A stretch of 64,000 nucleotides of DNA from Patescibacteria group bacterium (GCA_018830295.1 JAHJSM010000001.1:321980-385979); one strand, 5' to 3'; positions 2 to 23,860 are shown, counted from the first letter of the stretch. Numbers and translations: made by a program. Notes: generated by a model from the sequence alone, not told the origin.

Positions 2-889
2 GTAGGCGGGGCTTTAATTAATTTTATTTTGGTCTTTCTTTTTACTCGCGAATTTATTCCCGTTTCCTTTCAGTTTGATTTTATTTTTTGGAAAAAAATA
101 CTAAAAGAATCTCTGCCCTTAGCCTTGGCGATTGTTTTTACTGTAATTTATTTTAAACTGGACACAATCATGCTTTCTTTAATGAAGTCGCCTGTTGATG
201 TCGGTATTTACAATCTTTCTTATAAACTTTTGGAAAGTTTGCTCTTTTTTCCGGCGATGTTTGTCGGGTTGATTATGCCCTTGATGTCCAGATACGCCAT
301 TTTTAAAAAAGATAAATTTAAAAAAATCACCCAAAAAACGCTTGATATCCTGCTAATTTTCATTTTTCCCATGATGGCGGGCATCTTTTTTCTTTCTTCT
401 AAAATAGTTGTTCTAATTGGCGGCGATGATTTTATTTTGTCTGGCGGCGTCTTAAATGTTTTAATTATCGCCGCAGGTGTAATTTTTTTGGGAGTTCTTT
501 TTTCCAATATAATTATTTCCTTAAAAAAACAAAAGGCGTTAACAGTTATTTATGGGTTCGGAGCAATTTTTAATTTGGCGGCCAACTTTATCTTTATCCC
601 TAAATATTCTTATTATGGGGCGGCGTGGACGACTGTTTTAACGGAATTAATTGTTACGGCGATGATGATTTTTATTGTTTATAAATCGTTAAATTATCTA
701 CATTCTTTCAAAATTATTTTTAAATGCGCGGCGGCCGTTCTAATCATGATTTTGCCGCTCTATTTTTTAAGCGATTGGCATTTGTTTATTTTGGCTCCTC
801 TCTCGGCCTTGATTTATTTCGTATGTCTTTGGCTTTTTAAAGGCGTCTCTTCGGAGGAAATAATGTTTTTAATCAAAAAAGATGCATAA
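2..889 (+). CDS. Polysaccharide biosynthesis / Wzx-MurJ (MOP superfamily) flippase-like membrane protein, C-terminal part (5-prime end outside window)
   Basis: Open frame runs from window edge with no stop; polytopic hydrophobic sequence typical of MOP-family flippase C-terminal half; directly upstream of two Wzy_C-like genes. Homology call is by eye only. Confidence 0.45.
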   Translation, partial: VGGALINFILVFLFTREFIPVSFQFDFIFWKKILKESLPLALAIVFTVIYFKLDTIMLSLMKSPVDVGIYNLSYKLLESLLFFPAMFVGLIMPLMSRYAIFKKDKFKKITQKTLDILLIFIFPMMAGIFFLSSKIVVLIGGDDFILSGGVLNVLIIAAGVIFLGVLFSNIIISLKKQKALTVIYGFGAIFNLAANFIFIPKYSYYGAAWTTVLTELIVTAMMIFIVYKSLNYLHSFKIIFKCAAAVLIMILPLYFLSDWHLFILAPLSALIYFVCLWLFKGVSSEEIMFLIKKDA

Positions 890-2156
890 TTGGTTTCTCT
901 TGCTAATCTTATACCTCCCCTTTCAGGTCGCCCTCAATCCGGCGCGCGGTTTTGATTTGTCTTCTTTGAGGGTTTTAATTGTTCTCTTTTTTCTTTTTTG
1001 GCTAGCGAAAAATTATAAAAAAATTTTTGAAACTATTCGCGAGGGAGTTTATCTTAAAAACATCCAAAGCGCGGGCTTAATTCTTTTTTTTGTCGCTGCT
1101 TTTCTGTCGCTAATTGGAGCGGAAAATGTTTTTTGGGGGTTGAGAAAAATTGTATTTTTTATGTCCGTCTTCCCGCTCTATTTTTTAACGCTTGCTTTGG
1201 TTAATAATTTAGAAAAAATTAAAAAAATAATTTTAATTTTAGTCGGAGGCGGCGCTGTTTTCGCGCTTGTCGGTTTGCTTCAGTTTCTATCTGTTTTCGT
1301 TTTTGGATTAGAAGGGGTCTATAATTTTTGGGCATGGAATGTTGTTCCAGTTTTTTCAGGGTTTAACTTTGGCGCGATGCTTTTATCTTACCCAAGCTGG
1401 CTGGTTAATGTGAACGGCGAGACCATTATGAGGGCATTTTCTTTATTTTCTGACCCTCATATGTTTTCTTTTTATGTAGGAATGCTTGCGCCACTGGCGG
1501 CGGTTTATTTTAATAGTTATATATTTTTCTTTTTAATGTTTGTTGGCTTACTTCTGTCTTTCGCGAGGGGCGCTTATTTGGCGATTATTGCGGCTTTTCT
1601 TTTTATGGGCGTTCTTTTTTGGTTTTTCGCTAAAAACAAAAAAGCGGCGGTCGCGCTTTGCTCGCTGATTTTGGTTTTTATTATTCCAATCACTCCAATT
1701 TCGGATAGATTTTATTCTTCCTTTGACGCAGATGAAGGTTCAAACTCTGGCAGGTTGGAAATGTGGCGACAATCAGGGCAAACGGGTCTTCAATATTTTT
1801 GGAGCGGGGTTGGATTGGGGAATTATTCTTCTGTTGTTGACTCGGGTTTTGGGTACAGAAATCCAATTACGGCGCACAATCTTTACTTAGACATCTTCTC
1901 GGAAATTGGGTTTCTGGGCTTGTTTTTTTGGCTTTTTTTACTCTTAGGAACTATTTGGCAGTTGTTTCAAAAGCTTAAAAAATCAGATAATACAAAAGAA
2001 AAGTACATTATTATCGGTCTGCTTGGTTCTCTTTCTTATTTTTTAGTCCATAGTTTTTTTGAAACGCCCGTCTATAACCCTTCGGTTTTATCTCTTTTAA
2101 TGGTCATTCTGGGAATTTCCAGCGCGATCATAATAGCGCCCAATAAACAACATTAA
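882..2156 (+). CDS. O-antigen ligase / Wzy_C-domain membrane protein (WaaL/PglL-like)
   Basis: About 10 TM helices plus large loop with motif ...RNPITAHNLYLDIFSEIGFLGL... typical of Wzy_C (O-antigen ligase) family; overlaps upstream gene by 8 nt (operon). Confidence 0.6.
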   Translation: MHNWFLLLILYLPFQVALNPARGFDLSSLRVLIVLFFLFWLAKNYKKIFETIREGVYLKNIQSAGLILFFVAAFLSLIGAENVFWGLRKIVFFMSVFPLYFLTLALVNNLEKIKKIILILVGGGAVFALVGLLQFLSVFVFGLEGVYNFWAWNVVPVFSGFNFGAMLLSYPSWLVNVNGETIMRAFSLFSDPHMFSFYVGMLAPLAAVYFNSYIFFFLMFVGLLLSFARGAYLAIIAAFLFMGVLFWFFAKNKKAAVALCSLILVFIIPITPISDRFYSSFDADEGSNSGRLEMWRQSGQTGLQYFWSGVGLGNYSSVVDSGFGYRNPITAHNLYLDIFSEIGFLGLFFWLFLLLGTIWQLFQKLKKSDNTKEKYIIIGLLGSLSYFLVHSFFETPVYNPSVLSLLMVILGISSAIIIAPNKQH

Positions 2157-3341
2157 ATGTTAGTTTTATCTTTTCAAAAAATTATTAACTTTGGGATTTA
2201 CTTGGTTGTTTTTTTAATTCCAACATACATTTTTTCTTTCAAAATTTGGCTTATTCCGACTAATCTTTTAGAAGCTCTTGTTAGTGTTTTGTTCCTCGCT
2301 TGGTTTATTGGAAATTTTAACAAAATACCTGAAATATCGCGCAGTATGTTTAAAAGTTCATTTTTCCCGCCGATTTTACTTATCTTTTTAGGCGCGAGCA
2401 TCTCAACTATTTTTTCGGATGATATTATCACAAGCGCTGGGATATGGAAGAGTTGGTTTATTGTTCCTTTGCTGTTTTTTGTTGTCGTTTTAAACGCGAT
2501 TAAAAATGGGAAACAGGTTCAAAAAATTATTTCATCCCTGTTCTTTTCTGGTTTTTGGGTCTCTTTAATCGCTCTTTTTTATTTTTTCAGTCATAATCTG
2601 ACTTATGATGGCCGATTGAAAGCATTTTACGAATCCCCCAACCACTTGGCGATGTATTTATCGCCTATTTTGATTTTATCTCTTTATTTATATTTTGTTT
2701 TTGATAAAAAAATTATTAAATTTTTCTTGTTTGCCGCTCACTGTTCATTACTTGTTGTTTTGTATTTAACTTATTCTTATGGCGCGTGGATTGGACTGAT
2801 CGCTTCTTTGTTTTTTCTTTTAGCGACGATAAAAAAACAGAAAAAGATTTTTTATTTAATAGGGATTATGTTTCTGATTGTCGCTTCTTTTTTCGCTTTT
2901 CAAATTAATAGCCAAAAATTTCAGGGAATGATTGATTTTTCTTATCCCTCTTTGTCTTCTCGTTTCGTAATCTGGCAAAGCGCTTGGGAGATAATAAAAG
3001 ACCATCCCTTTAATGGGATTGGTCCCGGACTATTTCAAGAATATTATTTGAAATACCAAGTAACCCTTGAACCCTATCTTGAATGGGCCGTTCCTCAGCC
3101 CCACAACCTCTTTCTGGCGTTCTGGCTCCAAACAGGGTTACTCGGCCTGCTCGGATTTATTTGGCTCTTATTTAGGTTCTTTAGAATAAAAATAAACTCA
3201 TTAGCCATTATTTTAATGGCGACGATGATTTGTGTTCTAATTCACGGATTAGTTGACACAACTTACTGGAAAAATGACTTGGCGGTTGTTTTTTGGCTGA
3301 TTATAGCTCTAAACTACAAAGCAATCCGTCTCTCTTATTAA
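2157..3341 (+). CDS. O-antigen ligase / Wzy_C-domain membrane protein, paralog 2
   Basis: Polytopic; motif ...PQPHNLFLAFWLQTGLLGLLGF... (H-N-x-aL/FL signature of Wzy_C); start codon immediately follows stop of previous gene. Confidence 0.6.
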   Translation: MLVLSFQKIINFGIYLVVFLIPTYIFSFKIWLIPTNLLEALVSVLFLAWFIGNFNKIPEISRSMFKSSFFPPILLIFLGASISTIFSDDIITSAGIWKSWFIVPLLFFVVVLNAIKNGKQVQKIISSLFFSGFWVSLIALFYFFSHNLTYDGRLKAFYESPNHLAMYLSPILILSLYLYFVFDKKIIKFFLFAAHCSLLVVLYLTYSYGAWIGLIASLFFLLATIKKQKKIFYLIGIMFLIVASFFAFQINSQKFQGMIDFSYPSLSSRFVIWQSAWEIIKDHPFNGIGPGLFQEYYLKYQVTLEPYLEWAVPQPHNLFLAFWLQTGLLGLLGFIWLLFRFFRIKINSLAIILMATMICVLIHGLVDTTYWKNDLAVVFWLIIALNYKAIRLSY

Positions 3342-4413
3342 TAAAGAAAAGATAATCTTCTTGCGGAGATAGAATTACCTTTTGAGCGTCATAACTATTT
3401 TCTAGATTGTCTTCTCCTTCAAAAATTTTAATTGCTTCTTCTGTGTCTGAATCAATTCTCCAAAAATCGTCAGAGAAAAGAATTTTGTTTTTGTAGTAAT
3501 CATCAGGCAAAACAGCTGAAGACGATATTTTTTTTGGAATGGCGCAAAAAATATTTCGGTTATCTTGGCTCCAAGCGCACTTTTCGGGCAATGAAATAAA
3601 ACTTAATTCTTTAATGGTTTGTTTATCCCAATCCATTATTTTTAATTTTAAGTTCTTGCCATCGCTGTTTGTCTCCGAAAAAAGTATTTTATTGCTATTG
3701 GGCGACCAAAGAACAGACATCCCGTATGCCTCGCCCAATATTTTTTCAATATTGTTGTTGGGCAAGTTAATCGCGTAAACAATGCTTTTAGCTAAGCCAC
3801 TGGGCCTGGTTCTAATTGAGATTTTGTTTCGACTCGGCCATTCTATAATTAGGTTTTTCATTCTCGTTGAAAAAACATTAACCCATTCGGAACCGTCGGG
3901 GTTGGATATGCTAATATTATTATCTTCGTTTTGGGAGTTATAGTATTGGTAAGCGATTTTATCCTCATCGGGTGACCAGGCAATCCAGCGGACTTGCGTC
4001 GCAAGAGGAGTGGTTATCTTTGTGGAGTAGTCGTAAAGATATTTTTTTGGCAATCCTCTTTCATCAAAAATGGCGATTACTTTATCTTTACTTGGCGACC
4101 AAAGAATTTCCAAAAGGTCCGTCAGAATATTTGACGAAACGCGCGTTTGATTTGAGCCGTCAAAATCGGATTCAAAAACATTGCCATTATTGGATGAATA
4201 ATATTTAATTTTTTGTCCGTCAACAGCCGCTCCCATTGCTGGTTCTTGAGAGATGGTCTTTATTTTATCGCTCCAATAGGACTGCGTTGCTTGTTCTGCT
4301 GCTCCATCAGATGGCTCCATTTCTTCTTTGAAGAAATAATTATAAATAAGCAAAAGAGTTGCCGACAAAACGAGCAAAACAATTAAAACTACGAGTATTT
4401 TTTTGAGAGGCAT
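3301..4413 (-). CDS. Membrane-anchored TolB-like WD40/beta-propeller protein
   Basis: N-terminal TM anchor (LVVLIVLLVLSATLLLIY) followed by repeated W-S-P-(D/N/S)-x-x-K-I-a-F/Y blades (WSPSKDKVIAIF, WSPDEDKIAY, WSPNSNKILF) as in TolB/DPP-IV N-terminal propellers. Confidence 0.5.
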   Translation of the reverse strand: MPLKKILVVLIVLLVLSATLLLIYNYFFKEEMEPSDGAAEQATQSYWSDKIKTISQEPAMGAAVDGQKIKYYSSNNGNVFESDFDGSNQTRVSSNILTDLLEILWSPSKDKVIAIFDERGLPKKYLYDYSTKITTPLATQVRWIAWSPDEDKIAYQYYNSQNEDNNISISNPDGSEWVNVFSTRMKNLIIEWPSRNKISIRTRPSGLAKSIVYAINLPNNNIEKILGEAYGMSVLWSPNSNKILFSETNSDGKNLKLKIMDWDKQTIKELSFISLPEKCAWSQDNRNIFCAIPKKISSSAVLPDDYYKNKILFSDDFWRIDSDTEEAIKIFEGEDNLENSYDAQKVILSPQEDYLFFINKRDGLLCSLEL

Positions 4414-4423
4414 AATTTTGTGA

Positions 4424-4789
4424 TTATAGTGTTATTGACCAATTGACTAAATTTGGATTGATTTTGCTTAAAATTAAATAAGCGGCGAGAATTAAAACTA
4501 ATCCAGAAAGCGCTCCCCAAATGTATTCTTTGGATTTCTCTTTTGTTGTCACGACATCAGAAAGCATATAGGAAAAACCTCCAATAACCAGCCCGCCCAA
4601 AGCGGCGACAATGACAAAACCTATTCCAAATGTGTAAAGATATCCGATATATTCAGGAAATGTGACTTCCTTGCCAGAGACCACATTAGGCAAAGCAATT
4701 TCTATTTTGTAGCCAGCTGAAGCGAAATCGGCGGCAAACAACAAGTAATAAGTGATGACAAATAAAATTTTATAAAGATTTTTTTTCAT
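4424..4789 (-). CDS. Small secreted two-TM protein, VirB2/TrbC-like pilin candidate
   Basis: 121 aa; signal peptide (…LLFAADFASA) then two hydrophobic helices separated by short loop (GIGFVIVAALGGLVIGGF … ALSGLVLILAAYLIL), the canonical T4SS pilin layout; sits at 3-prime end of the VirB4 operon. Confidence 0.35.
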   Translation of the reverse strand: MKKNLYKILFVITYYLLFAADFASAGYKIEIALPNVVSGKEVTFPEYIGYLYTFGIGFVIVAALGGLVIGGFSYMLSDVVTTKEKSKEYIWGALSGLVLILAAYLILSKINPNLVNWSITL

Positions 4790-5511
4790 GGTTTAAAATT
4801 TATTTCCGCGGTTAGGCGGGCTTTTTGAAGCGGATTGTTTTTGTTTTCCGCTTTGACGACTAAATTTCTCGTAAAAGAATTCACCAATTGTCCAATTTCA
4901 AGAGTAAGAATGTCAGGACTTTTCTCGTCTGTCAGAACGGCTTTTTCTTCGCCAAGTTCCCATTGGTAATTTAATTCCTCAATATTTTTAATGTTAAAAA
5001 AATATGGCTGAACGGAAAAAACAATTTTTTTATTAGAAGAGACCTGGTATTTTGGCGTAATTCCAAAATATCCGTTAAAAAGAGAGTTTGTTTTTAGAAT
5101 AATTTCTGGCTCTTGCGGTTTAATCACTAAATAATAAGGTTGTCCTATAGTCGCTCCTTCTTGGTTTTTAATTTCTAATTTAATAGATTTTTTAGCGGAA
5201 CTTCCTCCCATATTAAACCTAAAAATTTGTTTTCCCTCTCCTGAATTTTCGTTTTGAATACGGTCATCCAAAAACCAATTATAAACTAATTCTTGGGGAT
5301 TAACTTCTTGAGAAAAAATATTAGCGACTACCTCCACGGAGCTTTCTCTGTCAGGAAGGGCTTTCCCTGTATAAGTGGGGTGAGTATATGTATTGGTTGA
5401 CCAAGTAAGAACAACTTCTATATCTGAAGACTGTCCTTGAATTAAAGCAATAGGCAAAAGAAAAAAGACAAGAACTAATAAAAAATATAAATTTTTTTTA
5501 AAAATAATCAT
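4786..5511 (-). CDS. Secreted hypothetical protein (signal peptide), T4SS-cluster associated
   Basis: N-terminal signal peptide MIIFKKNLYFLLVLVFFLLPIALIQGQ; no recognisable catalytic motif; 4-nt overlap with downstream gene. Confidence 0.4.
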   Translation of the reverse strand: MIIFKKNLYFLLVLVFFLLPIALIQGQSSDIEVVLTWSTNTYTHPTYTGKALPDRESSVEVVANIFSQEVNPQELVYNWFLDDRIQNENSGEGKQIFRFNMGGSSAKKSIKLEIKNQEGATIGQPYYLVIKPQEPEIILKTNSLFNGYFGITPKYQVSSNKKIVFSVQPYFFNIKNIEELNYQWELGEEKAVLTDEKSPDILTLEIGQLVNSFTRNLVVKAENKNNPLQKARLTAEINFKP

Positions 5512-5804
5512 TTTTTTTGTTCAAAATACATACTTACCACAAAAATAGTCCAAGTTGGGGAAATATCGCCCACGATAGGAATAAGTTCAATTAGGAATGT
5601 TCCGCTAAATTTTCCGGCAGGAAACTTATGAAGGCGAAAATAGCACCAAAAACCAAGGATAAAAGCGGTCATCGTGTCAATCATTCTAAAAAAGAGCAAG
5701 TCCAATCCAAACCAATCGCAAAAATCATTCGCGAAAGCGATTAAGCCGATAATCGCGAACTCGGCGTCAGTAATGTTGCTAGAGGGCGCTTTTATTTTTT
5801 TCAT
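5508..5804 (-). CDS. Small membrane protein (possible VirB3-like component)
   Basis: 98 aa, 2-3 hydrophobic helices, translationally coupled immediately downstream of VirB4-like ATPase. Confidence 0.35.
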   Translation of the reverse strand: MKKIKAPSSNITDAEFAIIGLIAFANDFCDWFGLDLLFFRMIDTMTAFILGFWCYFRLHKFPAGKFSGTFLIELIPIVGDISPTWTIFVVSMYFEQKK

Positions 5805-7605
5805 TTTCTTTTTCTCTTTCTTCTTCTTCTCTTGCTAATTCTTCTTTTGCTTTTTCGATTTCCAATAATTGCGCTGGGTCGGATGTGATAATTTGGTCTT
5901 CTGTGTAAGAAGCGACTATTTGGATTGCGACATGTTTTGCTCCAACAAAGAAAATCCCCTCCCCGACAGCGCTTTCCAAAAGCATATATTTTTCTTGATT
6001 AGTTAAATTGAATGTTTCTTTAATAAGGTCTATTGAGGCGGGCGATTGTTTTAATAAAAGTTGGATAGATGAGTTCGTGACGATCGGCTTGCCATATTTG
6101 GATTGTATAAAATCGGCTACATCTTGTGTGATTGTGGTTAGTCCGAGATAATATTTGCGGCATCGCTTGGCAATTCCATAGAGAAAAGAAGCAGCGTCTT
6201 CGTGTTGCATCATCACCCACGCTTCGTCAACAACCATCATCCTCTTCTTTCTTTTTGTGCGGATAATGTTCCAAATATATCGCAAAATAATATACATTGC
6301 CAAAGGTCTTAATTCTTCTTCCATATCTCTAATACTAAAAACAACCAATTCTTTGTCTAATCTAACATTGGTTGGTTGATTAAAAAATCCCGCGTAACTT
6401 CCACTGACAAATTTTTCTAAGCGAACGACTAAACTTTCAGCTCCGGTCATTCCCTTTAAGATAGCTTGAAAATCTTGCATGAGCGGAGGAGCAATCGCGC
6501 TAAAATCGGAATCTACTGTAATATCTCTGGCGGCGTATGTCTCAGTCAACGCCTTATCTACAATCGCATCCTCTTCCGGTGTCAGTCCACCGAGCATAAT
6601 TCTTATTAATCCAACCAAACTAATAATATTATTTCTTAAAATATCAGATGGCTTTTCGTCTGGTCCCGGAACGGGCAGGTCAAATGGATTAAGATAATGC
6701 CTAGAAGAAAGAGAAATATTAATAAATGTTCCATCAACCGTTTCAGCCAAATATTTATACTCTTTTTCCGGGTCAACAACAATAACATCGGTTTCTTGCA
6801 TTAACGAACGCAATATCTCCAACTTTACGGAATAGCTTTTGCCAGATCCGCTTTTTGCGAATACGACCATATTCGCGTTTTCTAAACTGAAGCGGTCAAA
6901 CAAGATTAAGGAATTGTTATGGCGGTTGATGCCGTAAAGAATTCCTTTACTATCGCTTAAATCAGATGAAACAAAGGGAAATGTGGAAGAAAGAGGGCTG
7001 GTGTTAAAGTTATTATGGACAAGCAATTTGTCTTCTTGTAGAGGAAGCGTTGAAACAAATCCTTGTTCTTGCTGAAAAACGGCTGGTTTGGCGTGGACCA
7101 TCTGATTTTCCAAAAGCGCTCGGATTTTATTTTCAGCGCTATCAAGGTCTTTTGGAGAGTCGGCAAAGAAAGTGATATAAATCCCTAACTTAAATAAGCG
7201 TTCGTTCCCTTCTTGAAGTTTATCTCTAATATTTTCAACATTTCTTAGCGCTGACTCTAAAGCGGGATCGCGAACCTTCCCCTTTCCTTGCTGGAATGAT
7301 ATTTGAGATTGAATTTGCGCTGTTTTTTTTGTTAATTGTTTTAAGACGGCGCTTGTCTCAACTGGATGGATAAAGAGAGCGATGTTCATCTCTTGGTCAA
7401 GCGTGATGACAGGAGATAGCCAATTAGACACTATCGTTTGAGGGAAAGAGAAAACAAAAATTGTTCGCGCGTATTTTTCGCCGATTTGTAAATAATTAGA
7501 GTCAATCATCATTCCCGCAGGAGCGATTAAATCAATCGTTTCAGTCGGTTCTCCTGGGAGCAAGTCCTCCGATTTTGTTTCTTTTGTTTTTTTGAATAGG
7601 TTCAT
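5779..7605 (-). CDS. VirB4/TraC/TrbE/PrgJ-like type IV secretion ATPase
   Basis: 608 aa; Walker A VFAKSGSGKSY, Walker B hydrophobic-MMVVDEAWVMM (DEAW is the VirB4/TraC hallmark), C-terminal coiled acidic tail; size and motif spacing fit Gram-positive-type VirB4. Confidence 0.75.
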   Translation of the reverse strand: MNLFKKTKETKSEDLLPGEPTETIDLIAPAGMMIDSNYLQIGEKYARTIFVFSFPQTIVSNWLSPVITLDQEMNIALFIHPVETSAVLKQLTKKTAQIQSQISFQQGKGKVRDPALESALRNVENIRDKLQEGNERLFKLGIYITFFADSPKDLDSAENKIRALLENQMVHAKPAVFQQEQGFVSTLPLQEDKLLVHNNFNTSPLSSTFPFVSSDLSDSKGILYGINRHNNSLILFDRFSLENANMVVFAKSGSGKSYSVKLEILRSLMQETDVIVVDPEKEYKYLAETVDGTFINISLSSRHYLNPFDLPVPGPDEKPSDILRNNIISLVGLIRIMLGGLTPEEDAIVDKALTETYAARDITVDSDFSAIAPPLMQDFQAILKGMTGAESLVVRLEKFVSGSYAGFFNQPTNVRLDKELVVFSIRDMEEELRPLAMYIILRYIWNIIRTKRKKRMMVVDEAWVMMQHEDAASFLYGIAKRCRKYYLGLTTITQDVADFIQSKYGKPIVTNSSIQLLLKQSPASIDLIKETFNLTNQEKYMLLESAVGEGIFFVGAKHVAIQIVASYTEDQIITSDPAQLLEIEKAKEELAREEEEREKENEKNKSAL

Positions 7606-8249
7606 TGGTTTCTCATATCTTTAGATTTTTTAATTTCAGCGTCTTCTTTGGCGCTGGGGTTATACAGTTTATAAAAAAGTTCAATTAATTCGTCGGTTTT
7701 TAAGGGAATCGCTTTAACTCCCGCGCCGCGCAGACCAGAGACAACAAACTCTACTCTTTGCCAAAGGTCGTTTTTAATTTCTTGAAATTTTTGCTCTTTA
7801 GCGGAATGGTTTTGTTTACTTGAAAAAACATCAAAAAAGCTGGATTTTTTGACAATAGAAGGGCTATACGGAACAACCACATAAAACGATTCAGTCATAA
7901 TATTGGTTAATTCGGTCAAGCCCTTAACAAAATCAATGTATTCGTAAGATTGCATTTTTAAAAGTTGATTTTCTTGCTTTATTTGTTTTTGTTCCAAACT
8001 TTCAAGATATGGTTTAATGTTAAATCTTCGCGAAGCGGCGACAATTTGGATTGAGAAATCAAGCGAGTTAAGAAAGTTTTGGTATTGAAAAATAATCGCG
8101 TCCTGTTCGTCAACAGACCTTAAAGCGAAATTTAAACTTGTTGTCATTAAAACAGCGCGCATCCCGCCATTTTTAAGAAAAATAACATCATCTCTAATTT
8201 CTTTAATCTCTATATGTTTTTGAATAGAAGCGGCGTTTATTTTTTCCAT
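7602..8249 (-). CDS. Hypothetical protein, T4SS operon member
   Basis: 215 aa soluble protein, coupled (4-nt overlap) to VirB4-like gene; no recognisable motifs. Confidence 0.4.
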   Translation of the reverse strand: MEKINAASIQKHIEIKEIRDDVIFLKNGGMRAVLMTTSLNFALRSVDEQDAIIFQYQNFLNSLDFSIQIVAASRRFNIKPYLESLEQKQIKQENQLLKMQSYEYIDFVKGLTELTNIMTESFYVVVPYSPSIVKKSSFFDVFSSKQNHSAKEQKFQEIKNDLWQRVEFVVSGLRGAGVKAIPLKTDELIELFYKLYNPSAKEDAEIKKSKDMRNQ

Positions 8250-8512
8250 AAATATAATTTTGGTTTGACTGAATAAGTAATGAATGAATTCAGAAAATTA
8301 ACAAAAGGTCGTCCATTTACTTTGTAAAAAGCGAGAGACAACGCGAGAGCAATAACCGGAGCGGCAACAATAATAAACGCTCCCAAAGTTAAAACACTCC
8401 AAAGAAAAGCGACTGCCATTGCCCCTCCTCCCAAATATAAAAATTGCTTCAATGTCAGAGGGCCTATGATTTTATCTTCAATGTCAATTAATTGTGGAAC
8501 TTGAAATTGCAT
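8237..8512 (-). CDS. PrgI/VirB3-like small two-TM membrane protein
   Basis: 91 aa; pattern IGPLTLKQFLYLGGGAMAVAFLWSVL…IIVAAPVIALALSLAF resembles PrgI-family (VirB3 analogue) proteins that precede VirB4 in Gram-positive T4SS. Confidence 0.45.
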   Translation of the reverse strand: MQFQVPQLIDIEDKIIGPLTLKQFLYLGGGAMAVAFLWSVLTLGAFIIVAAPVIALALSLAFYKVNGRPFVNFLNSFITYSVKPKLYLWKK

Positions 8513-8515
8513 GAA

Positions 8516-8974
8516 TTATGAATTATGGGTTGCTTTTAAATTAACAATATTGCCTTCTAGCTTGGGTTCTATTGTTCTATTTGGCGCGTTTTGCTCCTCT
8601 TCTCTTGGCCATCGCGCGATATTATGAATTTTTTTAAGTTCTTCTTTAACGGGCAGAAAGACCGATTGATTAACATCGCGCGCGACTTGGCGAGCTGTTT
8701 CTTCATTTAATCCGCATTTGTCACGAATTTCTTTTACAAATTCAGTAATATTTGTCTCGCCCAAAAGAACCATCCCGACAATGTAAGAAAAGTCCCAAAG
8801 TTGGTTTTTGCTTAATTTGTTTTTTTCAGCCACCGCTCTTATTTTATCAGCTGTTTCCACAGAGGGAATTGTTTCTCTTAATTTTTGCGGAAGTTGAAGA
8901 AATTTTAAGTACCTTTTTTTTAATAAAGGATCTGGAATATCTTTTAACGCTTCCATTTGCGTTTGGTTAAGCAT
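8516..8974 (-). CDS. Hypothetical soluble protein, T4SS operon member
   Basis: 152 aa, no TM, between VirB6-like and PrgI-like genes. Confidence 0.4.
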   Translation of the reverse strand: MLNQTQMEALKDIPDPLLKKRYLKFLQLPQKLRETIPSVETADKIRAVAEKNKLSKNQLWDFSYIVGMVLLGETNITEFVKEIRDKCGLNEETARQVARDVNQSVFLPVKEELKKIHNIARWPREEEQNAPNRTIEPKLEGNIVNLKATHNS

Positions 8975-8984
8975 AAGTTAAAAA

Positions 8985-10868
8985 TTAAACTATCCCCAGC
9001 GCCTTTCCCGCGCTGCTTTCAACATAATTAGCTGTATCAGGCCTATCTTCTTTAAGTTTTTTCTTTTTTGCTTCATCTTGATATATTGGCTTGATGGCCT
9101 TTTCTGTAATATGGTTGGATAACGCAGGGTTGCTTTCATGTAATTTGGATAGCGTTGAGGGATTCATTTTTCCACCTTTTTCAGTTATGGATTTTTTAAT
9201 AAATCCTTGAACCGCCGCTTGACCGGAATTGGGACTTTCTCCGCCAAGCGATTCAGATTGTATCTTTGACAGTCCATCCTTTGTGAAAGAAATATATTTT
9301 TCAAGCGCCGCTTTTGCCGCTTCGTCTTTTTTCCCTAAAGGAGCGGCGTTAAATGCCATAGAAGCCGCGATATCCGGCCTGGCCGACAAAAGATCTCCTT
9401 CTTGTCCGTGTCTTTGGGCGATTTTAATCGCTTTTTGAATCTCTTCGTGGGTATAGCCCGTCTTTTCGTTTTCCTTAAACGCTTTTTTCTCGGCTAAAAT
9501 TTGAGCGATAGCCACTTTCGCTCTCCCGTCAACCGCCATGCTTGTCCGTTGAAGGTTGTCGGTGGTATAACTCTTGTATTTTTCTTTTTCTTTTCCTGTT
9601 GCCGCTCTTTCTATTTCTGAAAGAGAACGGAGTCCTCTGCCACCTTGCTTCATTAATGTCTTGGCTCCAGTTAATTTGCCCGTCCATCCCATTCGTTCGG
9701 CCGCGGCGCTCAACTTTTCTCCAGCCCAGCCAGATGGTATCGCGCCCGCTCTTAACGCTTTTCTCTTTCCCCAATCACCAGCTCCTTTTCCTGCGTTTTG
9801 CGCCATTTTTATTACTCCAGCGGCGCCATAAATGCTCAATTTTTGCGCGACGATAATTCCTCCAAAAAGAAATCCAGTGGCGGCTAAATATTGCATCAAC
9901 ACATTTGGTGAAGACATAAGACCATTCCAAAAAGTTTCTTTCCATCCTGTCGCCTCAACAATGCTTGCCATTTCATCATTAATAATATTAGAAAGCGAGT
10001 CGCTATTAGTCGCTTCAACCGCTAAATAGATAAAAAAGGCGTAAATAGGGGCGAAAAAAGACCATTTAAAAAAATTACTCCACCATTTTCTAAAAAGATC
10101 TTCTGTTGCGGGCAAAACCCACATAGCCCAAGCCATGGGCGCTAAAATTAACAAAATCCAAAGCGTAATCATTCTAACTATTAAAAAGAAAGCGCCTATG
10201 CCGACCGCGATTGAAGCAAGAAATAAAAAAACTACAGAGGCAAGCTGGGTAAAAATCAACATCAAAACCCCAGCTGCGCCGGCTGCTAATTTTTCTCCAG
10301 CATCGGCATTTTCATTTATAGACAAAGCGCTTGATACTTTCATAAGTTTTGCCAATTGCTCCGTAAAGCCCATTTCAGAAGTTACTTCCTCGTAAAAAAA
10401 ATGAGTTGCGACTTGAGTAAAATCAATAATTACGCCACCAATAACTAAACTAAAATTAATCAAAAGGGCGGCGATAATAAGTTTTGGCAGTAATTTTTTT
10501 ACATCATACGACTCTATTTTTAAGGCGGTCGCTCCAGCAATAATGATGAGTCCTATGACAAAAAGCATATTTGCCACATCGCGCGTAATTCCCCATCCTG
10601 TTTTCACAATACTAATATTTGTAAACTTTTCTAATCCAAAAGCCATTTCCAAAAGCATTGACGCGAGATAAAAAATGATGGAAAAAATAGAGGTAAATAC
10701 AACGCCAATCGCGCTGATAACGCCTGAAACAACTCCAAAAAAAGCATTTTCCGCCCAACTTGCCCTCGCCTCCCCCGCGCTAAAAACAAAAATACCAAAA
10801 GCGCTCACCGCCAAAATGAGCGACAAACTCGCGATAATTTTTTTGTGTTTTAGAAAGAAGTTAGACAT
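8985..10868 (-). CDS. VirB6/TrbL/PrgH-like polytopic T4SS inner-membrane channel protein
   Basis: 627 aa; signal/TM start, at least 7 TM helices in first 390 aa then a long hydrophilic G/A/K-rich C-terminal domain, the typical TrbL/VirB6 architecture; adjacent to VirB3/VirB4 analogues. Confidence 0.5.
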   Translation of the reverse strand: MSNFFLKHKKIIASLSLILAVSAFGIFVFSAGEARASWAENAFFGVVSGVISAIGVVFTSIFSIIFYLASMLLEMAFGLEKFTNISIVKTGWGITRDVANMLFVIGLIIIAGATALKIESYDVKKLLPKLIIAALLINFSLVIGGVIIDFTQVATHFFYEEVTSEMGFTEQLAKLMKVSSALSINENADAGEKLAAGAAGVLMLIFTQLASVVFLFLASIAVGIGAFFLIVRMITLWILLILAPMAWAMWVLPATEDLFRKWWSNFFKWSFFAPIYAFFIYLAVEATNSDSLSNIINDEMASIVEATGWKETFWNGLMSSPNVLMQYLAATGFLFGGIIVAQKLSIYGAAGVIKMAQNAGKGAGDWGKRKALRAGAIPSGWAGEKLSAAAERMGWTGKLTGAKTLMKQGGRGLRSLSEIERAATGKEKEKYKSYTTDNLQRTSMAVDGRAKVAIAQILAEKKAFKENEKTGYTHEEIQKAIKIAQRHGQEGDLLSARPDIAASMAFNAAPLGKKDEAAKAALEKYISFTKDGLSKIQSESLGGESPNSGQAAVQGFIKKSITEKGGKMNPSTLSKLHESNPALSNHITEKAIKPIYQDEAKKKKLKEDRPDTANYVESSAGKALGIV

Positions 10869-10882
10869 TAATGCAAATCGTC

Positions 10883-12799
10883 TTAATTATCTCGCGCTGC
10901 TGCCGCGAGGCGATTTTTTTCGTCAATACACGCAGTTGCTTTTGCTTTGGCTTCTTCTATTATTTCATTGGCAGCTTCTAATTCAGCGTAAATCGTGCCG
11001 GAATTAGGATAGGTTGGGTCTCCTATTTCTCCCGCGAGATCAGAGTACAACATTAGCACTTCCGTAAGAGCGTCATAAATTTCATCGGACAAGTCATCAA
11101 TTCTAGTCGCTGTTTCGTTAAGATTAACAGAGGTTAGAAGAGGGTTTAATACTATTAAAATATCTTGGACATCTCCAATAACAACCTCTTTCGCGACATC
11201 AATATCATCTTGCGCCGCGATTATTTCATCTGTTTCTATTCCTGAACTTTCTTCGTACAGAGCTTCCCATTCTCTTATTTCAACAATTAAATCTTCAACG
11301 GAAAACATAGCAACGCTAACTAATGAAATTGCTTCGTTAGCATTAAAAATATCTTCTTCTAATTGATTAATTTCTTCTTCAATAGAAGGCAAGATATTAT
11401 TAATAATTTCTGCTTTTGTGCTTGAAGCCCAAGTGTAATTATCTGCGATCACACCTGAACATTCCGCCATGGTTGTTTCCAAGAAAGGAATAGCGTCTTC
11501 ATAAGCGTCATAGACCAAATTCCACGCGACCAAGGTTTCTTCTTGCTTCGGAATGAGGTAATCATCAAGCGTTTCTTCAAGAGAATTTAAGTTAGTTATT
11601 AATTCGTTGGCGGACGCTTCAGCCGTGTAATTGTCCTCTGTGTCTACGATTTCAGGCAAATTTTCTGATTCGCCCGTATCGCCGTATTTGGGCGAAGGCA
11701 CAGCATCCGCCTGAAGAAGCCCTTTGCCTTCGGTAAGAATTCGGTTAATTAAAGCGTCGGCGATTGCTTGGATATATACCGCGTAAGGTCCTGTTTTTGA
11801 CAATGCCGCTCCTATATATGTGTTCATTTTATCAAAAGCGGTAGTGACTGATTTACTGGCAACATCCTTTACCACCGAAGCAGGAGTATTGATTTGGCAT
11901 ATTTTAGAACAAGGCGCGGTGTATCCTGCTGTAGTAAACCCTTTATTATTTGGGTCTGGCTGGCAATCACTAGGCAGAGACGGCGAACCCCAGACATCTG
12001 TTTGCGTTTCAACTAAATCTCCATCCGCGCTATACCAATAGCAATCCTTGGGACTTAAAAATCCTTCGCCCATTTCTAAATCCTTTTGCGCGTTATTTAT
12101 TTCTTGCGTCATAACTCTTACTTTTTCGTCTTTGGCGAGTAGATAAGCTCCCGCAAAAGTGTTTTGCGGTTTCGTCAATTCAATCCATCCCTTCCATCCG
12201 CCGGTCGTAAAGTCGTCATAAAAATCATCTATATTATCCACAATATCCGTAAGCGTGCATTCGGCTTCGGTTTCAAATGTTGGCACATCCCTTAAAGCGA
12301 TTTTTATATCCAGATCAAACGGTTCGCAAAGCCACCCCGCGCCTAAATATTGGTCAACAAAATTTCCACCAGCGTTATTAGCCGCTCTTCCTAGCCAATC
12401 ATCCAGCCCTTCAGATAAAAATCTTGGTTCTGTCCCGTTTTGAATCCACGCGGTAATATCGTTCGTTAATTGGGCGAGTATTTGATGCAAAAGGACATTC
12501 AAGAGAACCGCGGCCGCCCAGGTAATAAGATCTTGCGCTTTCTTCCAAATAGTCCAAGCCGCTATTGTTTTTAAAGAAAGATCGGACAATTTGTCGTACG
12601 AGCTTTTGATATAATTCCACACATTGTCCAATACGGTTTGGAAGACGGTTGTCCATGACAATGACTCGGTATTTGTAACGGGTATTGCCGCCGCTTTTTT
12701 AGGAATAAGAAAAACTGCTCCCATTACTGAAAAAAGCAAGCAAACAATTAAAGCTGTGGAAGTAAATTTTTGTAAAATTGTTTTTTGAAAAAATATCAT
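10883..12799 (-). CDS. Large secreted Cys-rich protein (candidate T4SS surface/adhesin or channel-tip component)
   Basis: 638 aa; N-terminal TM/signal (LIVCLLFSVMGAVFLIPKKAAA); about 12 Cys in paired arrangement (WLCEPFD, AECTLTD, DCYWY, DCQPD, APCSKICQ); acidic coiled-coil C-terminal third. Confidence 0.45.
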   Translation of the reverse strand: MIFFQKTILQKFTSTALIVCLLFSVMGAVFLIPKKAAAIPVTNTESLSWTTVFQTVLDNVWNYIKSSYDKLSDLSLKTIAAWTIWKKAQDLITWAAAVLLNVLLHQILAQLTNDITAWIQNGTEPRFLSEGLDDWLGRAANNAGGNFVDQYLGAGWLCEPFDLDIKIALRDVPTFETEAECTLTDIVDNIDDFYDDFTTGGWKGWIELTKPQNTFAGAYLLAKDEKVRVMTQEINNAQKDLEMGEGFLSPKDCYWYSADGDLVETQTDVWGSPSLPSDCQPDPNNKGFTTAGYTAPCSKICQINTPASVVKDVASKSVTTAFDKMNTYIGAALSKTGPYAVYIQAIADALINRILTEGKGLLQADAVPSPKYGDTGESENLPEIVDTEDNYTAEASANELITNLNSLEETLDDYLIPKQEETLVAWNLVYDAYEDAIPFLETTMAECSGVIADNYTWASSTKAEIINNILPSIEEEINQLEEDIFNANEAISLVSVAMFSVEDLIVEIREWEALYEESSGIETDEIIAAQDDIDVAKEVVIGDVQDILIVLNPLLTSVNLNETATRIDDLSDEIYDALTEVLMLYSDLAGEIGDPTYPNSGTIYAELEAANEIIEEAKAKATACIDEKNRLAAAARDN

Positions 12800-13809
12800 T
12801 TTTGACGACTTTCTAAATCTACCACTATCTCCTCAATCAAACTGCGTAAGTTTTTAGCAGTTTCTTCAAATTTTTTCAAAATAAGTATTCCCTTAAGAGG
12901 GTCTTTTTCATGTTCAGGAATATGCTGATAAACTTTAGACATTGACCAAAAAACAGAAAGCGTCTTTTTGTGAATATCAACCCAGTCCAAAGGAATTGGC
13001 TCGTTTAATATTGCTTGGTATGATTGTAAATAACTTTCCGCCAAGCAATCAGCTCCCTCAAAATTATTTGTTTCAATAAATTTTTGAATAATATCGGCAT
13101 CGTCCCCAATGCTTACTATTGGGCATTTCACGATATCTTTTGTCCTGTCTTGAAGTCGTCCGGCATAATTGCGAATAGCGTCTAAATTATTCTCTTTTGT
13201 GGTTTGGAATTCAAAACCTTCCTTTTGGTAAGAAGGGATAAACTCTGATAAAAAATTAGCGGAGGATTTTCGTAGGGCTTTAGCGACATTTTCATCTGCC
13301 GCTTCTTCAACTGTTTTTTCTAACAAAGCGAGATCTTGAATATTGGGCAAACCAAAAGAATCATTGCTCATTTGTTTGCCTATAAGATAAGTCAACATTT
13401 GGCTTAAATTTCCAGGGTCTGGTCTTTCCATTTTTTTGCTGTCGCTTTTATCCGCGCTCGCTAATTTATCATCAGGCGCTTTTTTGAGTGGGTCGTATCC
13501 GGAGGCAACTTCTTCTCCGTCCGAATAACCGTCTCCATCCGTATCTGGATTGCGAGGGTCTGTTTTATGAATTTTTTCTTCCCAGTCATCTAACCCGTCA
13601 TGGTCTGGGTCATTAGTCATGCTTTCAGCGCTTAAATTTTGGGTGATAAGTTGTTCAAGAAAATTAGCCCGGCTTGATTTGCTTTTCAAAACCAAATATC
13701 CGCCGACGGATATGCCCGCTAGCAATGTCAAAACGACCGCAATGATATAAAACTTTCTTTTAAACTGGTTCATTGATAGTATTATACAATACTTTACAGC
13801 ATTTCCCAA
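12796..13809 (-). CDS. Membrane-anchored protein with thrombospondin type-3-like Ca-binding repeats
   Basis: N-terminal TM (YIIAVVLTLLAGISVGGYLVL); DPDHDGLDDWEE…DPRNPDTDGDGYSDGEE (DxDxDGxxD motifs of TSP3 repeats); first gene of the minus-strand T4SS operon. Confidence 0.5.
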   Translation of the reverse strand: MGNAVKYCIILSMNQFKRKFYIIAVVLTLLAGISVGGYLVLKSKSSRANFLEQLITQNLSAESMTNDPDHDGLDDWEEKIHKTDPRNPDTDGDGYSDGEEVASGYDPLKKAPDDKLASADKSDSKKMERPDPGNLSQMLTYLIGKQMSNDSFGLPNIQDLALLEKTVEEAADENVAKALRKSSANFLSEFIPSYQKEGFEFQTTKENNLDAIRNYAGRLQDRTKDIVKCPIVSIGDDADIIQKFIETNNFEGADCLAESYLQSYQAILNEPIPLDWVDIHKKTLSVFWSMSKVYQHIPEHEKDPLKGILILKKFEETAKNLRSLIEEIVVDLESRQK

Positions 13810-13870
13810 GTTCGTTCTTTTTACTTATCCACAGCGTGACAAGGAAAAATTCATTTTTGGGTCGCGGGGC

Positions 13871-13900
13871 TTGACAAAACATTGCTCTTGCGGTTATAAT
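13871..13900 (+). promoter_or_regulatory. Sigma70-like promoter (TTGACA-18-TATAAT)
   Basis: Perfect -35 TTGACA and -10 TATAAT hexamers with 18-nt spacer about 45 nt upstream of the 13948 ORF. Confidence 0.45.
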
Positions 13901-13947: not shown

Positions 13948-14625
13948 ATGGATAGATTAATAAAAAGATTTTCGTTTTTAGTTTTTTTGGCGCTTTTGCC
14001 TTTAGTAATAACGGGCTGCGCTGAAACACTTCTTGCCACCAGTTTGGGAGTAGCCGCGTGGCAAGGACATCGGATAGAAACTGATGCTGACGCGGAAGAT
14101 GTGGCTAAAGTCGACATAGATCAGACCGAAACGGCGGCGATGGCGGTTGCTGAAGAAATGGGAATTACCATATCAGGAAGAGAACAGGAAAAAATAGGAG
14201 AAGTTTTGCTTATCGGAAGTTCGCCTCGTCATGAGAAAGTTCATATTATCCTTTCGTCGTTTTCTAATAAAATGACGAAAGTTCAAGCCAGGGCGAGAAA
14301 AAGCAAAATAGGTATCCCTTTTACTCGTAACAAGGACTATACTTACGCGGAAGAAATCGTTAAAGCGATTAAGGAAAAATGTCGCGGTGGAACAATCGCT
14401 AATAAAGGCGATTCTGATGTTGTTGACGCAGTCACAGGGGCGACAATTCAAATCAGCAATATCCGCGAAGGACCGGGCGCGAATTACAAAATTGTCGCGG
14501 TCGCGCCGAAGGGCGCCGAGTTAATTTTCCTCAATGAAGAGGGAAATTGGCTAAAAGTTAAATTAGTAAAAACTGGACGAATCGGGTATATTTACAATAC
14601 TCTTGTTCGTCCAAACGGGATTTAA
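13948..14625 (+). CDS. Lipoprotein with C-terminal bacterial SH3 (SH3b) domain
   Basis: Lipobox LALLPLVITGC; C-terminal …GPGANYKIVAVAPKGAELIFLNEEGNWLKVKLVKTGRIGYIYNTLV matches SH3b fold signature; RBS AAGGAGG 8 nt upstream. Confidence 0.55.
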   Translation: MDRLIKRFSFLVFLALLPLVITGCAETLLATSLGVAAWQGHRIETDADAEDVAKVDIDQTETAAMAVAEEMGITISGREQEKIGEVLLIGSSPRHEKVHIILSSFSNKMTKVQARARKSKIGIPFTRNKDYTYAEEIVKAIKEKCRGGTIANKGDSDVVDAVTGATIQISNIREGPGANYKIVAVAPKGAELIFLNEEGNWLKVKLVKTGRIGYIYNTLVRPNGI

Positions 14626-14641
14626 TGGAATCGGTTAATAG

Positions 14642-14676
14642 GCGCTGGGATTCAAAAAAATCATCCCAGCGCTTTT
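14642..14676 (+). terminator. Rho-independent terminator
   Basis: GGCGCTGGGAT-loop-ATCCCAGCGC hairpin followed by TTTTTCATTTT. Confidence 0.5.
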
Positions 14677-14767
14677 TCATTTTCTATTTTTCTTGACATA
14701 TTCATTAAAATACTGTATGACTAAACCAGTAACTTAACAACTAAACTTAAGAAAAGGGGGTATAGAT

Positions 14768-15370
14768 ATGAAAAGATTAAGATTTTTGACAATAGCAGCA
14801 ATAGTGGCAATGGCGCTTTTCCCAATTTATTGTTTCGCGGGAGGTCTCCCCTCCCCAAAGCCGGGGATGGTTATTATCGCGAACGCGACAAAAGCAGATA
14901 GAGAAATATGGCTTTTCGCTGGCTCTTACGGCGTTGACGACCTAAAGACCTGCGACGAAAGAGGGAATCAGGTCTTTGCTGTTTCTCCTTTGAAATTGCT
15001 TCAAATAGGAGGAAGAGACCTTATCTTCAAGTCGGAGGAAATTATTTCTCCCCAAACGCGAGGACAATGGAGGAGTAATTTCATTCTTCCTTGTAGTTAT
15101 ATGAGATTTAAGGGCGGCAAAATGGCGAGTCAAACGGCTGTTGTTTATCTCAAGCCGAACAGTCGCTATACTCTTTATGTCCGCGACTTGCGGGTAAACG
15201 GCGCGTTTTTAGGCGAGAGGGCGATTTTTGTTAAGACAAGTTATAACGCCACTCGTGATTCGTGCAAATCCTACCTCGGAACAATTTGGGCAGACGAAAT
15301 CATTGACTTGCCCGATGTCGACACAAGCGGTCCAGCGAGATTCGGAATTAAAATCCAAATTGAACCGTAA
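14768..15370 (+). CDS. Secreted hypothetical protein
   Basis: Signal peptide (IAAIVAMALFPIYCFAG); RBS GGGGG upstream; no known motifs. Confidence 0.45.
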   Translation: MKRLRFLTIAAIVAMALFPIYCFAGGLPSPKPGMVIIANATKADREIWLFAGSYGVDDLKTCDERGNQVFAVSPLKLLQIGGRDLIFKSEEIISPQTRGQWRSNFILPCSYMRFKGGKMASQTAVVYLKPNSRYTLYVRDLRVNGAFLGERAIFVKTSYNATRDSCKSYLGTIWADEIIDLPDVDTSGPARFGIKIQIEP

Positions 15371-15385
15371 AAAAGGAGGTAAAAA

Positions 15386-15910: not shown

Positions 15911-15920
15911 CAGGCGATTA

Positions 15921-15953
15921 AGGGACAGTCCCTCGCGACGAGGGACTGTCCCT
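15921..15953. repeat. Family B palindromic element (GGGACAGTCCC-loop-GGGACTGTCCC)
   Basis: Inverted 11-12 nt arms with 9-nt loop tcgcgacga; same element at 9 other positions in window. Confidence 0.85.
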
Positions 15954-15962
15954 GTCATAATC

Positions 15963-15999
15963 TTTAGCCCTGATTTGGCAGAATAAATCAGGGCTTTTT
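15963..15999 (+). terminator. Rho-independent terminator
   Basis: AGCCCTGATTT-loop-AAATCAGGGCT hairpin followed by TTTTTTTATTTT. Confidence 0.5.
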
Positions 16000-16086
16000 T
16001 TATTTTCTTATTTGGCAGTTTTAAACAAAGGTGATAAAATTTAAATCCAAGGTCAGATCTCAAGTGTATAATTGAGATTATAGAAT

Positions 16087-23856: not shown

Positions 23857-23860
23857 AATT

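Follow-up and report, generated by a model that had tools for sequence, protein, structure and literature searches.

Patescibacteria account for a large part of bacterial diversity and live on other microbes, to which they attach, and their chromosomal type IV secretion system (T4SS) is, to our knowledge, the only T4SS known to be essential for the growth of its owner. The T4SS locus of Southlakia epibionticum, described by Wang et al. in 2023, contains VirB4, a gene in the TrsD position, PrgI, VirB6-like proteins, an exported immunoglobulin (Ig)-like protein and an array of pilins (PMC10633639). It has no recognizable relaxase or coupling protein, and transposon sequencing (Tn-seq) found nearly all of its genes to be essential for epibiotic growth (PMC10633639). 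In a survey of 3,035 genomes, Quinonero-Coronel et al. (2025) recovered a monophyletic Patescibacteria VirB4 clade nested in MPF_FATA, with TrsD, PrgI, VirB6 and VirB2-like pilins near virB4 and relaxases in 103 of the 3,035 Patescibacteria genomes (PMC12102498). The virB4 neighborhood is enriched in dnaA, dnaN, rnpA, rpmH and ksgA, particularly in Paceibacteria, the class in which Portnoybacteria are placed (PMC12102498), and a 2025 review proposed that material is exchanged with the host, or taken up from it, through the pilus as a conduit (PMC12857230). Here, we describe a gene cluster at positions 3301-13809 of a 64,000-nucleotide stretch of DNA from a Patescibacteria group bacterium (GCA_018830295.1, JAHJSM010000001.1:321980-385979; the whole stretch is called the window below). 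We consider it probable that this locus is a chromosomal, vertically inherited T4SS of the Patescibacteria clade, belonging to an ultra-small, Portnoybacteria-like (Paceibacteria) organism and serving contact and exchange with a host but not conjugation.

Like the Southlakia and other Patescibacteria-clade systems, the locus pairs a monoderm-type VirB4 with an adjacent, separate TrsD-like open reading frame (ORF), and it shares with that clade PrgI, an extended VirB6, VirB2-like pilin content and the core order VirB6-PrgI-TrsD-VirB4. It likewise lies on the chromosome near dnaA, rnpA and ksgA, with neither a relaxase nor a type IV coupling protein (T4CP) nearby. An exported Ig-like protein is common to both loci, SEML1_0005 of the essential T4SS locus in Southlakia and the analogous g09 here (gene labels are given below), and the gene order is collinear with SEML1_0005-0019. 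An earlier note on this DNA, made from the sequence alone, had proposed a comparison with the T4SS loci of Saccharibacteria and other candidate phyla radiation (CPR) genomes, and gene content and order do match both Southlakia and the published clade architecture (PMC12102498). Altogether, the cluster is intact, carries no DNA-transfer genes and is a new example of the system described between 2023 and 2025.

Gene content and T4SS core

Eleven consecutive ORFs on the minus strand fill positions 3301-13809, and we labeled them g01 to g11 in order of transcription. The coordinates and direction given in the earlier note stand, but its count of ten genes does not, and it had overlooked the ORF that we call g06. 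Neighboring ORFs overlap by 4-26 nucleotides (nt) at six of the ten junctions and are separated by gaps of 3-14 nt at the remaining four, a tight spacing that is consistent with an operon and with the translational coupling that the note had described for most of the genes. The ORFs, with lengths in amino acids (aa), are as follows.

g01, 12796-13809, minus strand: membrane-anchored TSP3 protein (PF18884), 337 aa as called
g02, 10883-12799, minus strand: extracytoplasmic helical-bundle protein without a Pfam model, 638 aa
g03, 8985-10868, minus strand: extended VirB6/TrbL-like polytopic membrane protein (PF04610 TrbL), 627 aa
g04, 8516-8974, minus strand: soluble (cytoplasmic) helical protein between VirB6 and PrgI, 152 aa
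g05, 8237-8512, minus strand: PrgI/VirB3-like small membrane protein (PF12666), 91 aa
g06, 7602-8249, minus strand: TrsD/TraD-like protein, the VirB4 N-terminal domain as its own ORF (NF041427), 215 aa
g07, 5779-7605, minus strand: VirB4 ATPase body of the monoderm (MPF_FATA-like) type (NF045971), 608 aa
g08, 5508-5804, minus strand: small amphipathic membrane-associated protein of a lineage-specific family, 98 aa
g09, 4786-5511, minus strand: anchored or secreted protein with two tandem Ig/FN3/cadherin-like beta-sandwich domains, 241 aa
g10, 4424-4789, minus strand: VirB2-like T4SS pilin (PF18895), single copy, 121 aa
g11, 3301-4413, minus strand: anchored TolB-like (PD40) beta-propeller (TIGR02800), the last gene, 370 aa

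Besides a monoderm inner-membrane core and a single VirB2-like pilin, the cluster thus encodes six proteins that are lineage-specific. Four of them (g01, g02, g09 and g11) are predicted to be anchored at their N termini and to lie outside the membrane.

The VirB4-like ATPase with GSGKS and DEAW motifs that the earlier note had recognized is g07, in which Walker A occupies residues 253-257 and Walker B residues 460-463. It matches the NCBIfam model NF045971 ("VirB4-like conjugal transfer ATPase, CD1110 family") at 6.5e-113, with 378 bits against a cutoff of 325, and the Pfam families P-loop_TraG (1.8e-26) and CagE_TrbE_VirB (3.2e-7). Among PDB structures, it is matched best by VirB4 from the Firmicute Thermoanaerobacter (4ag5, 1.7e-45), compared with 8e-6 for the Gram-negative TrwK, and it aligns with PrgJ of pCF10 at 24% identity (E=1e-40) over PrgJ residues 227-773 only. 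The N-terminal VirB4 domain that is absent from g07 is supplied by g06, which matches TrsD (NF041427, 1.4e-5), has a precomputed match to the TraC-like family PF26593 and is joined to g07 by an ATGA overlap. Along the VirB4 model of a Mycoplasma integrative and conjugative element (ICE; NF045975), g06 spans positions 102-288 and g07 spans positions 292-893. A frameshift artefact was rejected as the source of this split because g06 is a separate ORF in 76 of the 80 related loci, by which we mean the 80 loci of GTDB species genomes whose VirB4 is closest to g07. With g06, the locus also has the TrsD-like protein beside virB4 by which Patescibacteria-clade T4SSs are recognized.

The remaining core proteins were identified directly or through their orthologues. 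The match of g05 to PrgI (PF12666, 2.9e-10) is above the gathering score and is accompanied by a match to TcpE (2.1e-5); PrgI is found in 71 of the 80 loci and, by analogy with VirB3, g05 would tether VirB4 to the membrane. The polytopic VirB6/TrbL-like protein with a hydrophilic C-terminal domain reported in the earlier note is g03, which has about six to seven hydrophobic segments followed by a hydrophilic domain of ~280 aa and sits upstream of prgI and virB4, as in pCF10. Its own match to TrbL (PF04610, 2.6e-4) is below the cutoff, and 13 of its 27 orthologues match TrbL, the best at 6.8e-10. Similarly, the pilin g10 has weak matches of its own (PF18895 T4SS_pilin, 0.015; NF045849, pilin-like conjugal transfer protein, 0.012), while PF18895 is matched by 13 of 15 orthologues, the best at 1.3e-6. 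A signal peptide ending in ...ASA, two hydrophobic helices and an INPxLV C-terminal end that is conserved in the orthologue alignment agree with the secreted VirB2-like peptide with two transmembrane (TM) helices that had been noted before. Together, the profile searches that the note had suggested for VirB4, TrbL/VirB6, PrgI and VirB2 lend support to all four, with VirB6 and the pilin supported via their orthologues.

The true start of the first gene is probably the ATG at 13773, which would give g01 a length of 325 aa, and an independent assembly calls the gene at 325 aa. A promoter-like sequence on the minus strand, TTGGGA-17-TATAAT, ends 7 nt before this ATG, and a -35/-10-like pair so near the start codon may mean that the operon mRNA is leaderless. 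The scan for promoters and terminators was uninformative, with promoter counts no higher than in shuffled sequences.

Conservation and chromosomal setting

The 80 nearest VirB4 loci (57-79% identity) come from Patescibacteria metagenome-assembled genomes (MAGs) of Portnoybacteria, Azambacteria and Moranbacteria and from some MAGs with loose labels, and the closest proteins, at 93% identity, are annotated as Candidatus Portnoybacteria. About 20 loci, from Portnoybacteria and Azambacteria, keep the complete g01-g11 order along with the Wzy genes and ksgA/uvrD, at amino-acid identities of 25-79%, and more distant Moranbacteria-like loci retain the PrgI-TrsD-VirB4 core and usually also VirB6 and the propeller. 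Purifying selection acts on all of the genes, with pairwise ratios of nonsynonymous to synonymous substitution (dN/dS) among relatives that lie within 0.03-0.40 in every case. The tightest constraint is on VirB4, TrsD and PrgI (0.03-0.12 in most pairs) and the loosest on g01, g02, VirB6, g09 and the pilin, a pattern expected of a functional machine with exposed surface parts.

Upstream of the cluster are ksgA, 2.9 kb away, and uvrD, both of which the earlier note had named as housekeeping neighbors, and then a type IV pilus cluster; on the other side come two Wzy genes in convergent orientation and a flippase gene, downstream of g11. The chromosomal location that the note had proposed, as well as vertical inheritance, is shown by this ksgA/uvrD and Wzy synteny in about 20 diverged genomes and by the dN/dS values. 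In independent assemblies with identical proteins, the gene content to the left continues with PRC, jag/KhpB, yidC, rnpA and then a divergent dnaA, whose product matches 8btg at 4e-107. The rnpA-yidC-jag genes and dnaA are ~4-6 kb beyond g11, with dnaA ~2.6 kb left of the window start, and the cluster therefore ends ~6 kb from dnaA.

The window ORFs scanned with Pfam and NCBIfam, all but a few of those of at least 120 aa, include no relaxase, coupling protein or integrase. Phmmer queries with PcfC, PcfG and MobC of pCF10 against all frames of the 64 kb gave no relaxase or coupling protein match, and the left flank, from the window edge to dnaA, contains no relaxase, T4CP or integrase. At the cluster there are no tRNA or repeat boundaries, no compositional break (its GC content is like that of its surroundings) and no mobile-element hallmarks. 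The earlier statement that no relaxase or VirD4 is visible is thus confirmed for the scanned ORFs and the all-frame search, and the search of flanking sequence that it called for revealed none leftward up to dnaA. The note had named two outcomes that would undo its reading, a lack of profile support for VirB4 and VirB6 or a relaxase, VirD4 and integrase nearby, and neither occurred.

Between the cluster and ksgA lies a variable segment of plus-strand genes (13948-16746), which encodes an SH3_3 lipoprotein, proteins of 200 aa and 174 aa and a TraX protein and has a GC content of 0.43 compared with ~0.39 around it. The relatives are without its SH3 and TraX genes, and the 200-aa and 174-aa proteins occur in only four to six loci. 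A distant locus (L086) has a PG_binding_1 protein in the matching slot, so a divergent cell-wall-binding protein beside the cluster may recur. The TraX-family protein (F-pilin acetylase family; 16087-16746, plus strand; PF05857, 1.3e-39) is encoded 2.3 kb upstream of the cluster. Since it is absent from all 80 related loci, synteny does not support it as a part of the system, and it is probably no conserved component. The divergent intergenic region at 13781-13900 holds a perfect sigma-70 consensus (TTGACA-18-TATAAT, plus strand, 13871-13900) before the SH3 lipoprotein gene, as well as a perfect DnaA box (TTATCCACA, 13825-13833). DnaA-box-like 9-mers number 25 in the window compared with 12.8 in shuffled sequences, an excess of ~2-fold.

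The type IV pilus cluster (19491-25609, minus strand), directly upstream of uvrD-ksgA-T4SS, encodes a PilB ATPase, a PilC platform, three prepilin-like proteins and a 444-aa protein. Genes for a response regulator and a histidine kinase (25627-27049) are immediately upstream of pilB, and pilM and pilN are found ~30 kb from the pilus cluster (56922-58491, plus strand). GC skew and gene orientation switch together at ~39.2 kb, and the skew follows the coding strand everywhere. A replication origin at this ~39-kb switch was rejected, as the intergenic space is ~90 bp, the skew tracks the coding strand and dnaA is left of the window. Consequently, ~36 kb of genes on the minus strand, those of the T4SS among them, are oriented toward dnaA. 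A low-GC (0.32) stretch at 44000-46200 (plus strand), among translation genes, encodes a 415-aa protein with an Mrr_cat restriction-endonuclease domain and may be a small defense or foreign insert. Within 64 kb of this reduced genome, there are three Wzy_C/O-antigen-ligase-like polytopic proteins (882-3341 and 51951-53216, plus strand), and two of the three genes are the conserved convergent neighbors of the T4SS cluster in many relatives.

Accessory proteins

Chief among the accessory proteins is g02, which belongs to a large family and carries an N-terminal anchor or signal and a conserved domain of ~180 aa. A full hidden Markov model (HMM) scan of 1.84 billion representatives retrieved 4726 members at E<=1e-3, 3442 at E<=1e-10 and 1033 at E<=1e-30. 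A repeat search of the word-indexed protein database with a broader g02 profile retrieved nearly the same set as the first, as the number of candidates was capped. In nine long family members, the region in common with g02 is free of Pfam domains, and the only Pfam matches were to Kelch repeats elsewhere in one of the nine. The gene is directly upstream of VirB6 in 27 related loci, and in 21 of the 49 loci having at least 7 kb upstream of virB4; a distant family member (P0063) takes the same slot, between ksgA and VirB6-PrgI-TrsD-VirB4. In the structure predicted from 43 homologues (predicted local distance difference test [pLDDT] 70.5), residues 385-638 are confidently modeled as an elongated bundle of helices, a stalk ~90 Å long. 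The model is poor over the best-conserved part (approximately residues 95-260), which includes the invariant C158 and C181, and the conserved cysteines are suggestive of disulfides. Five Azambacteria-like loci (L023, L024, L030, L036 and L040, at ~550-6160 in each) encode a giant g02-family protein of ~1700-1790 aa upstream of VirB6, which suggests a lineage-specific enlargement of the extracellular part.

The other three anchored proteins have recognizable folds or motifs. The earlier note's membrane protein with TSP3 Ca-binding repeats is g01 (PF18884 TSP3_bac, 1.6e-11), which has one N-terminal TM helix, a double TSP3-type Ca2+-binding motif and a helical C-terminal domain and is syntenic in 24 loci. 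Its motif, DxDxDGLxDWEE...DTDxDGYxDGEE, has an Asp/Gly ladder that is invariant in the alignment and finds a PDB match in the Ca-binding region of Bap (1.1e-5). For g09, the AlphaFold2 (AF2) model (pLDDT 85.9) matches Hoc (6e-7), cadherin, FN3 and SiiE structures when searched against the PDB with Foldseek. Since this confident model consists of two Ig-like sandwiches, g09 was rejected as a VirB8-like NTF2 protein. The TolB-like propeller seen earlier is g11, which matches TIGR02800 (1.1e-5) and, in profile searches against the PDB, TolB propellers (1.7e-5). It is syntenic in 33 loci, converges on the two Wzy genes and, in the loci tabulated, adjoins Wzy genes wherever those are detected.

Two small proteins complete the set. 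No relatives of g04 were found among Pfam families, NCBIfam families or PDB sequences, and the protein has no hydrophobic segment; its orthologues hold the equivalent place in 22 loci, as well as in the distant locus L086. The earlier note had counted two PrgI/VirB3-like proteins with two TM helices, of which g05 stands and g08 does not. No Pfam or NCBIfam family matches g08, which has no strongly hydrophobic 19-residue segment. It was rejected as a second PrgI/VirB3 or pilin (hhalign probabilities of 4% for PrgI and 0.2% for the pilin) and as a relative of pCF10 PrgF or PrgG (hhalign <=4% for both). On the other hand, g08 is conserved across 18 loci, in which E15, D27, W53, R57, P62, P76 and W85-T86 do not vary.

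A LysM-LysM-CHAP peptidoglycan hydrolase is encoded 34 kb away (47351-48388, minus strand) and is the sole match in the window of the VirB1-like PrgK of pCF10 (3.8e-6, via CHAP). It may be a trans-encoded wall hydrolase candidate or a plain housekeeping enzyme.

Proposed function, alternatives and comparison with known systems

Since the cluster has no coupling protein or relaxase, conjugation is unlikely, and by analogy its role is most likely contact-dependent exchange with a host cell. From what is known of the family, a VirB4 hexamer would dock on the membrane through PrgI/VirB3 and the detached TrsD-like N-terminal domain and would spend ATP to pull pilin from the membrane, with a pilus or stalk polymerizing on the VirB6 platform. 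In classical Gram-positive systems, VirB8-like, VirB1-like and adhesin proteins supply the wall-spanning and surface parts; here, the anchored g01, g02 and g09, and perhaps g11, could form a wall-spanning and surface or host-contact module. Such a machine would mediate contact and exchange, of proteins or small molecules, with the host cell of the epibiont. The earlier note had favored a secretion or cell-contact machine over a conjugative element, a deduction that our results support and that has already been published for this class of system (PMC10633639, PMC12102498, PMC12857230).

We also entertain, with some doubt, the idea that each of the six non-canonical genes encodes a dedicated, previously undescribed subunit of a T4SS variant peculiar to Paceibacteria. 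In such a variant, g02 would replace VirB5, VirB8 or PrgK at the wall or tip, and a single-pilin filament that draws host material would be surrounded by a host-contact structure made of the TSP3 anchor, the Ig-like protein and the propeller. The novelty of the locus may lie in its conserved, unannotated accessory set, chiefly the large g02 family upstream of VirB6.

Several points weigh against the reading as a host-contact T4SS and against the parts assigned to its accessory proteins. The cluster contains no VirB1-like hydrolase and, with structures predicted for g02 and g09, no VirB8-like (NTF2) protein. The roles given to g01, g02, g09 and g11 are guesses; structure models cover g02 and g09 only, with the conserved N-terminal domain of g02 modeled poorly, and g11 could belong instead with the neighboring Wzy and flippase genes. 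The presumed placement of g07 in the Patescibacteria VirB4 clade is drawn from, and consistent with, its nearest relatives, and the proposed function is carried over by homology from a different class, Saccharimonadia. In addition, the absence of a T4CP holds for the inspected sequence, a window of only 64 kb; absence from the whole genome does not follow, because Patescibacteria T4CP homologues are commonly far from virB4 (PMC12102498).

This last point matters for the idea that the locus is a functional conjugation apparatus served by a coupling protein, a relaxase and an origin of transfer (oriT) encoded elsewhere in the genome. T4CP homologues are frequent in Patescibacteria, mostly far from virB4 (PMC12102498), and our inspection spans only 64 kb plus ~6 kb. 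However, relaxases occur in only 103 of the 3,035 Patescibacteria genomes, the T4CP homologue of Southlakia is non-essential whereas its T4SS genes are essential (PMC12102498), and the present locus is fixed beside housekeeping genes in many species, with a GC content that matches its surroundings and no mobile-element hallmarks, all of which makes such an apparatus quite improbable. That the cluster is the decaying remnant of an integrated conjugative element is hardly credible. The relaxase, T4CP, VirB1-like and VirB8-like genes of classical Gram-positive systems are indeed missing, but none of the eleven ORFs is broken, either here or in about 20 relatives, their order is conserved, and there is no integrase, flanking tRNA or flanking repeat. 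The dN/dS values of 0.03-0.40, with VirB4 (0.07) held more tightly than the neighboring ksgA (0.18), and the conservation speak decisively against decay.

A machine for DNA uptake or nucleic-acid import, like Helicobacter ComB or archaeal Ced, could feed a nucleotide-auxotrophic cell, and Patescibacteria are without nucleotide synthesis (PMC10633639). The composition of the locus (VirB4, a pilin and no T4CP or relaxase) fits, and g07 has weak matches to CedB (5.3e-11) and CedD (2.9e-5). These matches reach only 41.8 bits against a cutoff of 700 and 22.9 bits against 600, respectively, as expected from general VirB4 homology, while the closest families of g07 are conjugative monoderm VirB4s. 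In Southlakia, competence needs type IV pili (T4P) and ComEC, and cells deleted for comEC no longer transform but stay viable, in contrast to the essential T4SS (PMC10633639; PMC12857230); a separate T4P cluster is also present in our window. We therefore regard import as improbable. A better-founded though still unlikely alternative concerns only the terminal genes, in that g11, and possibly g01 and g02, may be co-transcribed envelope proteins tied to the Wzy/flippase polysaccharide genes and not T4SS parts. In the loci tabulated, g11 is beside two convergent Wzy genes wherever these are detected, even where extra genes part it from virB4, and it resembles TolB, an envelope-integrity protein. 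On the other hand, g11 follows the pilin gene on the same strand after a gap of only 10 nt, g02 is directly upstream of VirB6 even in a distant locus, and the Southlakia T4SS locus also has essential exported non-canonical proteins (PMC10633639).

Set beside known systems, the proposed host-contact T4SS is like Bordetella Ptl, Brucella VirB, Helicobacter ComB and archaeal Ced in being energized by VirB4 and having a pilin but no coupling protein or relaxase. Ptl, Brucella VirB and ComB differ in that they are diderm systems with a VirB7-10 outer-membrane core, and the Ced proteins show no sequence affinity beyond the general VirB4 homology with g07; Pfam and NCBIfam searches gave no other matches to Ced or ComB families. 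The affinity to the monoderm conjugation systems is closer. PrgJ of the pCF10 Prg/Pcf system belongs to the same NCBIfam family (CD1110) as g07, the order VirB6-(g04)-PrgI-VirB4 is collinear with prgH(VirB6)-prgI-prgJ, and a separate TrsD/TraD ORF is also found in the pGO1/pIP501 subclass of MPF_FATA (PMC12102498). Unlike pCF10, the locus has no PcfC (T4CP), PcfG (relaxase) or MobC, nor does it have detectable relatives of PrgF and PrgG. Compared with Gram-positive MPF_FATA systems, the cluster is without a PrgK-like hydrolase, a PrgL/VirB8-like protein and LPXTG adhesins; conversely, it has a VirB2-like pilin, which the classical Gram-positive systems (pCF10, pGO1/pSK41/pIP501) are without, and it is chromosomal and non-mobile whereas those systems are conjugative.

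The differences from Southlakia are of number and of accessory content. There is one pilin gene here compared with a six-gene array in Southlakia, and one VirB6-like gene compared with two, and the cluster is without the lysozyme-like (VirB1) and NTF2-like (VirB8) genes of Southlakia. The organism is of the class Paceibacteria, whereas the functional data come from Saccharimonadia. The TSP3 anchor, the g02 family, g04, g08 and the TolB-like propeller are additional here and are not mentioned in the main text or the available supplements of PMC10633639 and PMC12102498. Altogether, the locus adds no new principle to the system described in Southlakia and the wider Patescibacteria clade but represents a compact Paceibacteria version that has a single pilin and an order of 11 genes conserved in full, and it offers the g02 family, the TSP3 anchor, the Ig-like protein and the propeller as candidates for the missing parts.

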